The position numbers and the translations under genes are program-made. 64,000 bases of DNA from Escherichia coli (GTDB lineage Bacteria > Pseudomonadota > Gammaproteobacteria > Enterobacterales > Enterobacteriaceae): the NCBI RefSeq assembly GCF_003334815.1, contig NZ_QOWO01000012.1. One strand, given 5' to 3'. This document shows, piece by piece, positions 59,648 through 60,711 of the stretch; the first letter of the stretch is position 1, and every line of letters starts with the position of its first letter. Below the pieces are notes generated by a model, which was not told where the DNA came from, made no database searches, and was given only the letters and a program-made list of their open reading frames with translations.

Positions 59648-60544
59648 TTATACAAAAAGTGACAAAAAAGATCGGGTTTGATCACAGTCAGGGATCCCGG
59701 CTCGTCCACCGGGACGTGTGCATTTTAACGCCGCTACACCGCTGGCGAAGCGGACTGACTCCGCTAAATCCCCACTTGTTGCCAGCGCCACCGCCAAAGC
59801 GCCGTGAAAAACATCACCCGCACCTGTGGTATCTACCACATCAACTTTGAAGGCCGGTTGATGCTGACGCCCACCATTTTCCAGCCAGTCGCAGCCTGCG
59901 CTACCCTGGGTCACATAGACATGACCATTTGTGAGCGTTTGTGCCTGTTTTAGCGCACTGGCCATCTCTTTCACGCCCGTTAAGCGCGCCAGACCCGGTT
60001 CTGAAAAGGCCGCGTGATCGCTTAATGCCACCAGCTCACTGATATCCTGCGGCGTAATGTCCCCGTCCAGAACGGTCATCACACCCGCCTGACGGGCCAG
60101 GGTGAAGGCTTTTTTAGCGCCGTCGTGCCAGCGTACATCTGCCAGCACAACATCCCACTGAGAGAAATCAATTTCCTCCAACCACTCTGCGTCAGGCAGC
60201 AGATCCGGGCTGGGGTAGTTAATGATTATCCGCTCGCCTTTGGTATCCACCATGATGGCGGATTGCGAAGATTTCGCCTGGTTATACCGTTTGGTGTAAC
60301 GGGTGTTAACGCCCCAGGATTCCAGCTCTGCCAGCAGGCTGTTGCCCGTGTCGTCATCACCTACGCGACCAATAAAATCGACCTGCGCCCCCAGCCTTGC
60401 CGCCGCAACCGCTGCCGTCGCCGCTGGCCCGCCACCAACTTCCGTATAATTTCTCGCCACGTATTTACCGCTCTCCGTCGGTAACCCTTCCACGTAATAG
60501 ATGCGATCCATCACGGTTATACCTACACAAGCAACACGAATCAT
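59648..60544 (-). CDS. yihV: PfkB-family sugar kinase (6-deoxy-6-sulfofructose kinase)
   Basis: 298 aa from MIRVACVGITVMDRIYYVEGLPTESGKY; GAGD motif (DTTGAGDVFHGA). Confidence 0.9.
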   Translation of the reverse strand: MIRVACVGITVMDRIYYVEGLPTESGKYVARNYTEVGGGPAATAAVAAARLGAQVDFIGRVGDDDTGNSLLAELESWGVNTRYTKRYNQAKSSQSAIMVDTKGERIIINYPSPDLLPDAEWLEEIDFSQWDVVLADVRWHDGAKKAFTLARQAGVMTVLDGDITPQDISELVALSDHAAFSEPGLARLTGVKEMASALKQAQTLTNGHVYVTQGSAGCDWLENGGRQHQPAFKVDVVDTTGAGDVFHGALAVALATSGDLAESVRFASGVAALKCTRPGGRAGIPDCDQTRSFLSLFV

Positions 60545-60711
60545 GGTCATTCCTTAAACATTTTGGGATGCGTTCATTTTAATTTCACCAATTGTTTAAA
60601 AAGTGACGGCTGTCAATTTTTTGACGATAAATTACAAATACGATCAAAAACAGACAAGCAAAGCATGTCATAAATGACAAAAAGTGACATCACTGTATTC
60701 AGGAGAGGGTT

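Follow-up and report, generated by a model that had tools for sequence, protein, structure and literature searches.

The sulfoquinovose switch and related repressors

Sulfoquinovose is among the most abundant organosulfur compounds in nature. GlpR and DeoR combine a winged helix-turn-helix with effector domains of the sugar-phosphate type and oligomerise on several sites in helical phase at divergent promoters of catabolic genes. The operators of GlpR consist of tandem 10-bp half-sites, and the half-sites of both proteins, WATGTTCGWT for GlpR and TGTTAGAA for DeoR, are arranged as palindromes. For CRP, the half-site consensus is AAATGTGA; class II sites are canonically centred near -41.5, which puts them 32 bp away from the middle of the -10 hexamer, in promoters lacking a -35 element. 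The high-affinity motif of H-NS reads TCGATAAATT.

CsqR (YihW) is described as the DeoR-family repressor of the sulfoquinovose genes, with strongly cooperative, oligomeric binding and with sulfoquinovose, sulfoquinovosyl glycerol and sulforhamnose as de-repressors (PMC8006165, PMC8249747, PMC10991401, PMC12608037). Genomic SELEX, gel shifts and AFM located CsqR at the yihU/yihV spacer and upstream of csqR (Shimada 2019, as cited in PMC8006165, PMC12608037 and PMC8249747), and weaker binding is reported for the csqR fragment. Kaznadzey et al. (PMC5816610) mapped transcription starts at -27/-28 for csqR, at -25/-27 for yihV and at several positions, including -62/-63, for yihU, observed gel shifts of both fragments with CRP in vitro, and described a CRP site, conserved within yihV/W and placed at -41.5. 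In a ChIP-exo study with myc-tagged YihW (Gao et al. 2021, PMC8464067), one dominant peak was called at 4071641-4071681 of NC_000913.2 with a signal-to-noise ratio of 168; no peak is listed there for the csqR promoter.

The general point, control of the yihU/yihV spacer and of the csqR promoter by CsqR, is therefore already known and its novelty is low; no new system is added here, because the regulator, its effectors and the target fragments are established. The preliminary description of this DNA had proposed that the locus hosts CsqR operators, and in this respect it agrees with experiment: both segments bind CsqR and are released by sulfoquinovose (PMC8006165, PMC12608037, PMC8249747). The binding of whole fragments and its relief by effectors, like the ChIP-exo occupancy, the protection from Dam and the gel shifts with CRP, are taken from the work of others (PMC8464067, PMC7708049, PMC5816610). 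Our own contribution lies in conservation, geometry, periodicity and the turnover of motifs between lineages.

The locus and its counterparts in other genomes

The window analysed here is a stretch of 64,000 nucleotides from Escherichia coli. A 1.5-kb region in it is 100% identical with many E. coli chromosomes, where csqR, yihV and yihU are annotated:

58829-59614, minus strand: csqR (yihW), ATG at 59614
59648-60544, minus strand: yihV, stop codon at 59648-59650
60712-61608, plus strand: yihU

The region is in reverse orientation relative to K-12, and positions were converted according to: window position = 60712 + 4073571 - NC_000913.3 position. The offset from NC_000913.2 to NC_000913.3 was taken as +1977 at 4.07 Mb, allowing +/-2 bp. 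The ChIP-exo peak then corresponds to window positions ~60625-60665 (+/-2), as a single called interval whose calling may be distorted by oligomeric binding. The gel-shift probes, located from the published primers, extend over 60477-60811 and 59556-59861 and include every motif discussed below. Since a consensus promoter scan found no sigma-70 pair (-35/-10) in either control region, promoter positions are based on the published transcription starts together with conserved T-A-N3-T hexamers. An Rfam search of 59400-60900 at a permissive threshold detected no RNA family.

Scanning of species-representative genomes yielded about 60 loci with the yihU / yihV-csqR arrangement, encoding CsqR proteins of 74-99% identity. 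Conserved among lineages are the GTGACA of the csqR promoter, an AGTGA...TGTCA dyad, a central block of the spacer and a TGACA-N5-TGACA pair in front of yihU. A divergent "short" cassette is present in 1327 of 5426 complete E. coli genomes, at about 67% DNA identity. Its CsqR is 72% identical overall, with nearly identical residues 1-62 (the DNA-binding domain with its helix-turn-helix), in agreement with the published cross-binding. The short cassette retains the GTGACA of the csqR promoter, the dyad as AGTGA-N6-TC, and ATAAATTACAAATA..TCAAAAACAGAC. Dyad and block are also kept in Leminorella and in Dongshaea, whose CsqR is 68% identical.

The central block of the spacer

The segment for which in vivo occupancy by CsqR has been reported contains or overlaps the following features:

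60616-60655, plus strand: four contiguous 10-nt units, ATTTTTTGAC, GATAAATTAC, AAATACGATC and AAAAACAGAC; proposed primary CsqR operator
60639-60644, plus strand: yihU -10 element TACGAT, with T-A-N3-T invariant in all lineages; start -62/-63 at 60649/60650
60642-60645, strand not assigned: the sole GATC of the spacer, within the yihU -10 region; Dam-protected in vivo

The spacer carries a block of about 85 bp (60575-60657) that hardly varies across Enterobacterales, being nearly the same in Escherichia as in Pantoea, Rahnella and Pectobacterium, as opposed to the variable synonymous sites of yihV, and that is recognisable in Dongshaea. Exceptions within the block are the dyad spacer (60608-60610), position 60626 and the stretch 60587-60590. 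The four units are near-invariant in 56 species and were also found in the short cassette, Leminorella, Edaphovirga and Dongshaea. C and CA recur in them with a lag of 10 nt (p about 0.001-0.006 in most lineages, values which are not independent because the lineages share ancestry, the units having been noticed and the tests chosen after inspection of the data). Units and lag-10 periodicity together are kept in seven of eight lineages, Dongshaea among them, the register alone in all eight. Phased A-tracts could reflect DNA curvature instead of repressor contacts.

The preliminary description had placed the CsqR operators in two motif clusters, one on either side of this block. The in vivo peak does not coincide with them: it maps between the clusters and overlaps the central block, whereas the cores of the clusters (60603-60615 and 60666-60689) flank it. 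The units span the yihU -10 element and the transcription start, with the hexamer lying 5-6 nt upstream of the mapped start (-62/-63) and occurring as TATGAT, TAACAT, TATCAT, TATGCT, TAAGAT or TACACT in other lineages. We propose the four-unit block as the primary CsqR operator. Five of the seven weaker YihW ChIP-exo peaks were examined (yafO, ssuE, ansP, glpA and yhcC), and these showed no A-tract/GAC or TGACA repeats and no common motif.

The GATC of the spacer adds a second line of evidence. In Salmonella, the yihU '-66' GATC is non-methylated on both strands (PMC7708049), and the S. enterica spacer contains only one GATC, with its adenines at -67/-66 of yihU; the non-coding GATC of yihU/yihV is also listed among the dynamically methylated sites of E. 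coli. Stable Dam protection implies stable occupancy by a protein, which ChIP-exo allows to be named, and from the overlap of 60642-60645 with the peak we infer that the protecting protein is CsqR.

The left dyad and the divergent promoters

Towards yihV, the spacer contains a dyad that the preliminary description had taken for a CsqR operator (GTGAC-N3-TGTCA), and the -10 element of yihV:

60598-60621, strand not assigned: dyad AAAAAGTGAC-GGCT-GTCAATTTTT, with the CRP-like core AGTGA-N6-TCAAT at 60602-60617, centre 60609.5
60576-60581, minus strand: yihV -10 element TAAAAT, in a CATTTTAATTTC block that is invariant in all lineages; start -25/-27 from the ATG at 60569-60571

Both arms of the dyad are kept (AAAAAGTGAC in 44 and TGTCA in 48 of 56 species), its spacer being variable. 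The dyad as such is strongly conserved; what found no support was its assignment, as geometry and position fit a CRP site and the dyad falls outside the CsqR ChIP-exo interval. The invariant part is AGTGA-N6-TCA with A/T flanks, which corresponds to the CRP core geometry GTGA-N6-TCA, and distant lineages have AGTGAT-N4-GTCACT. Counted against the CRP core TGTGA-N6-TCACA, the E. coli sequence AGTGA-CGGCTG-TCAAT matches at 7 of 10 positions and the AGTGA-N6-TCACT of Leminorella and Edaphovirga at 8 of 10. Measured between centres, the dyad is 31.0 bp away from the -10 element of yihV and 32.0 bp away from that of yihU, as expected of a class II position, in a spacer where the consensus scan detected no -35/-10 pair. 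Based on the invariant CRP geometry, the 31/32-bp distances, the lack of a -35 element and the published shifts of the fragments, the dyad is most likely a single class II CRP site that the promoters of yihV and yihU, facing in opposite directions, have in common. CsqR may in addition contact its right arm, TGTCA.

Repeated words in the yihU leader and the csqR promoter

The four strings on which the preliminary description relied are all present in the window, each one base away from where it had been placed: AAAAAGTGACAAAAAAG occupies 59654-59670 (start given as 59655), AAAAAGTGACGGCTGTCAATTTTTT begins at 60598 (given as 60597), and TGTCATAAATGACA and GTGACATCAC are at 60666-60679 and 60684-60693. 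As described, the first copy is situated inside the last yihV codons, 40-49 bp upstream of the csqR ATG (59614). The 10-mer AAAAAGTGAC occurs exactly three times in the 64 kb (59654, 60598 and 60679), always on the plus strand and always at this locus, well above the frequency expected by chance. A 13-mer, ACAAAAAGTGACA, is found both at 59652-59664 in the csqR promoter and at 60677-60689 in the yihU-proximal site. The form AAAAANNGAC has six matches in the window, five of them within 59654-60688, and the looser A5-NN-GAC form is also found inside the ChIP-exo peak (60646-60655). All three positions of AAAAAGTGAC are conserved across about 56 other species. TGACA/TGTCA is present in four to five copies against ~0.8-1.75 expected in each of seven lineages, ranks among the most over-represented 5-mers in all seven, and is the only 5-mer to recur in every list. 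The repetition of GTGAC/TGACA words is hence real and conserved.

Two words in front of yihU differ in their conservation:

60675-60689, plus strand: TGACA-N5-TGACA, a direct repeat situated at about +25 to +39 in the yihU leader; candidate for an auxiliary site of CsqR
60666-60670, plus strand: TGTCA, the left arm of the dyad TGTCA-N4-TGACA of the preliminary description; lineage-specific, probably incidental

The TGACA words are kept in 44 and 49 of 56 species and their N5 spacing in 51 of 56, the five bases in between being variable; a variable stretch of ~13 nt separates the pair from the near-invariant block. TGTCA at 60666-60670, on the other hand, is absent from all variants listed among the 56 species and kept only in E. 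whittamii. The proposed operator dyad TGTCA-N4-TGACA is accordingly replaced by the direct repeat TGACA-N5-TGACA as the conserved form, since the left arm of the dyad is confined to Escherichia. Nor did the proposed copy GTGACATCAC hold up: it is not conserved even within E. coli, K-12 having GTGACATAAC, and the ATCAC at 60690 is not conserved. In the short cassette, the pair adjacent to yihU is inverted (TGTCA-N5-TGTCA), and Edaphovirga carries, in place of the pair, a kinase leader with three TGACA repeats at N5 spacing. With its spacing kept while place and orientation shift, the element behaves like a protein-binding site and not like a promoter or RNA element. An RNA element in the yihU leader was also considered and is disfavoured by the inversion of the pair in the short cassette and the lack of an Rfam match.

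At the csqR promoter, the relevant features are:

59654-59664, plus strand: AAAAAGTGACA, in the csqR promoter spacer and the last yihV codons; candidate autoregulatory CsqR site
59647-59652, minus strand: csqR -10 element TATAAA, including the yihV stop codon, in a conserved CATTTTATAC block; mapped start -27/-28 from the ATG (PMC5816610)
59674-59688, minus strand: conserved GGGTTTGATCACAGT (TGTGATCAAAC on the minus strand), resembling a CRP half-site upstream of the csqR promoter

Here, AAAAAGTGAC is followed in a 10-nt register by AAAAAAGATC and GGGTTTGATC. GACA is kept in all 61 orthologous loci and GTGACA in 54 of them. Conservation at synonymous positions amounts to 0.72-1.0 over the final ~12 codons of yihV, apart from position 59672, compared with 0.1-0.6 further upstream; the 3' end of the gene is thus under a constraint beyond that of coding. 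GGGTTTGATCACAGT (59674-59688) is likewise conserved above coding constraint. The position of -41.5 published for a CRP site was not reproduced at this promoter, the sole TGTGA half-site being centred at ~-37.

Relative to the mapped start (PMC5816610), the csqR-promoter copy is at about -13 to -23, between the -10 element and the -35 position. It has no partner arm. Nothing closely resembling the central block is present in this promoter, the best match being the shared 10-13-mer, which keeps the motif of the preliminary description in play as the true recognition word. This copy is a candidate for autoregulation, and together with the yihU-proximal TGACA pair it provides good candidates for CsqR contact sites. 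The preliminary description had also suggested looking for the motif at the other promoters of the cluster. In K-12, no copy within one mismatch was found in the remaining yih intergenic regions (ompL/yihO, yihO/P, yihP/Q, yihQ/R, yihR/S, yihS/T and yihT/U); this agrees with the single target seen in genomic SELEX.

Proposed layout

On balance, we favour the view that the locus is the known CsqR/CRP-controlled switch of sulfoquinovose use (sulfo-EMP pathway) with the following base-level layout, in which we infer the particular bases contacted by CsqR and CRP from sequence comparison. One CRP dimer on AGTGA-N6-TCAAT (60609.5) would activate both divergent promoters from a class II position. 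CsqR, with its DeoR-type winged helix, would nucleate on the four 10-bp phased A-tract/GAC units at 60616-60655, over the yihU -10 element and start, and spread cooperatively to TGACA-N5-TGACA (60675-60689) and probably also to the TGTCA arm of the CRP dyad. Its occupancy would block RNA polymerase and compete with CRP. The proposed CsqR contacts overlap core-promoter regions, the csqR copy at -13 to -23, the block over the yihU -10 element and start, and the TGACA pair at +25 to +39. The csqR promoter, with one AAAAAGTGACA in the spacer that separates its -10 element from the -35 position, would be subject to weaker autorepression, which fits the weaker binding of the csqR fragment and the lack of a listed ChIP-exo peak there. 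Binding of sulfoquinovose, sulfoquinovosyl glycerol or sulforhamnose to the C-terminal domain would dissolve the complex. A structure search returned no CsqR or CsqR-DNA structure, the sole match being a DeoR effector domain (7L6L).

A more specific version is put forward only tentatively: the spacer may be a compact bidirectional switch of ~85 bp, in which a shared CRP dimer is combined with four 10-bp direct repeats (not dyads), CsqR polymerising from there onto movable TGACA-N5-TGACA sites.

Alternative explanations

The reading of the preliminary description, in which CsqR dimers sit on the palindromes 60603-60615 and 60666-60679 as classical operators, plus a lone copy in the csqR promoter, appears unlikely to us. 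The two dyads are opposite in polarity (TGAC...GTCA versus GTCA...TGAC) and unequal in spacing, and one dimer geometry can therefore not fit both. Its strongest point is that AAAAAGTGAC(A) is the sole long word common to both CsqR-bound fragments; in addition, both clusters are within the gel-shift probe, and DeoR and GlpR, family members from E. coli, use palindromic operators. The left dyad is strongly conserved, which also speaks for this reading, but it suits CRP in geometry and position. For the TGTCA at 60666, no conservation is seen beyond Escherichia. Furthermore, both cores are outside the ChIP-exo peak, and the copy in the csqR promoter lacks a partner arm. The interpretation of the preliminary description is thus partly supported: the feature is real and conserved, and belongs to a control region that had already been characterised.

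It is likewise improbable that all AAAAAGTGAC copies are CRP half-sites, with the TGACA words being degenerate -35-like sequences or incidental and CsqR contacting the central block only. AAAAGTGAC does fit 7-8 of the 9 positions of the consensus half-site, CRP shifts both fragments in vitro, and the ChIP-exo peak is restricted to the central block. Neither the csqR-promoter copy nor the yihU-proximal one, however, is accompanied by a second CRP half (1/5 match), their positions (-13 to -23 and +29 to +39) are not ones from which CRP activates, and the conserved core at these two sites is TGACA, not GTGA. The TGACA pair is inverted or relocated with N5 kept, as for a factor specific to the gene cluster, and the csqR fragment binds CsqR yet has no copy of the central block.

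With even less confidence, the phased A-tracts and GAC words might be regarded as curved DNA, UP-element DNA or a target of nucleoid proteins (H-NS, Fis) at a horizontally mobile cassette, without a specific operator code. A-tracts do occur every 10 bp, and the E. coli ACGATAAATT at 60624-60633 is close to the H-NS motif; its H-NS-like G at 60626 is, however, specific to E. coli (1 of 56). Base-for-base invariance across families is not needed for curvature, and ChIP-exo identifies CsqR itself at the central block, all of which makes this explanation very unlikely.

That the short words recur by chance, in intergenic DNA rich in AT, can practically be dismissed. The pentamers are frequent in the window (GTGAC/GTCAC 112 times, TGTCA/TGACA 96 times), but when the two non-coding cores were shuffled 2000 times with dinucleotides preserved, a 13-mer common to both appeared only twice, and a 10-mer present once in one core and at least twice in the other never did. 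Among 63 orthologous loci (534 kb), the same three positions account for 87 of the 99 exact AAAAAGTGAC copies.

Comparison with known systems

The CsqR/CRP switch favoured here governs the use of sulfoquinovose by enteric bacteria. A base-level map could turn fragment-level knowledge into testable point mutations, in a candidate direct-repeat operator, a shared CRP site and a Dam-protected GATC, and it sets right the obvious guess that the conspicuous palindromes are the operators.

The GATC of the spacer is listed alongside other non-methylated GATC sites under catabolic repressors (nanA, mtlA, dgoR and srlA), literature in which the protecting protein is not named, whereas here the overlap with the ChIP-exo peak points to CsqR. 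As in class II CRP promoters, the spacer dyad has a GTGA-N6-TCA core with A/T flanks, 32 bp from a -10 centre and without a -35 element. Unlike the usual promoters of this class, one site appears to be used symmetrically by both divergent promoters (at 31 and 32 bp), and its core is sub-consensus in E. coli (7/10). The conserved units of the central block differ from the GlpR and DeoR palindromes in that they are direct repeats of another sequence (an A-tract followed by TGAC, TTAC or GATC); a literature search for direct-repeat operators in the DeoR family returned nothing directly relevant. The closest system remains the CsqR (YihW) regulon of K-12, with which the locus shares the protein, the two target segments, the repression, the effectors and the oligomeric binding (Gao et al. 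2021, PMC8464067; Shimada et al. 2019, Microbiology 165:78). In the literature consulted here, binding is described at the level of fragments or peaks, whereas the present comparison proposes, at the level of bases, an array of four 10-bp units, a TGACA pair and a CRP dyad.

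Base differences and repeats around yihV

At position 60626 in the yihU/yihV spacer, a G is found in E. coli only (1 of the 56 species compared); other genera have a C or T. This G produces ACGATAAATT (60624-60633), which resembles TCGATAAATT, the high-affinity motif of H-NS, and it also yields an additional ACGAT at a distance of 16 bp from the ACGAT within the yihU -10 element (TACGAT, 60639-60644, plus strand). At 60691, the window has a C where K-12 has an A (GTGACATCAC vs. GTGACATAAC), a difference that breaks the small GTGA..TCAC symmetry pointed out in the preliminary description.

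An 18-nt direct repeat with 83% identity, which may be due to chance, consists of the following copies:

59711-59728, copy 1, GGGACGTGTGCATTTTAA, within yihV
60565-60582, copy 2, GGGATGCGTTCATTTTAA, across the yihV -10 region

Weaker YihW ChIP-exo peaks

A common motif was sought in the sequences of the glpA and ssuE peaks, and none was found.

Weaker YihW ChIP-exo peaks (NC_000913.2 coordinates)
2350653-2350658, immediately upstream of glpA, signal-to-noise 13.7
996770-996800, sulfonate-utilisation gene ssuE, signal-to-noise 8.2

Orthologous csqR loci

In nine species AAAAAGTGAC occurs at one constant position, ~7262-7287 (loci L008, L014, L023, L024, L027, L029, L032, L035 and L056). Coordinate conversion places it within the fabY/yiiD counterpart gene, where it probably reflects coding conservation and no regulatory site.

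Among the distant loci, the kinase gene of Dongshaea marina is split into two called ORFs (L076, 4068-4963), which suggests a frameshift or pseudogene. The metagenomic locus L077 lacks a called kinase gene; the gap of ~700 bp found there (4295-5000) contains a second AAAGTGACAAAAATG, located ~190 nt upstream of the copy at the csqR promoter. A contig of the Bacillus coahuilensis m4-4 assembly (L055, NZ_ABFU01000106.1, 885 bp) encodes CsqR residues 52-261 with 100% identity to E. coli and is almost certainly an E. coli contamination.

Variation of the cluster within E. coli

In strain EC147566 (H9, NZ_CP139360.1 4679233-4682462), csqR is broken into two pieces by an IS4-like ISVsa5 element, which should lead to de-repression of the cluster. 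The set of 5426 complete E. coli genomes includes 1327 with a divergent "short" sulfoquinovose cassette, which shows ~67% DNA identity. This cassette (e.g. L069, NZ_CM165885.1) adjoins typA and glnA and includes a gene for a zinc-dependent alcohol dehydrogenase; its observation in E. coli is consistent with PMC12608037.
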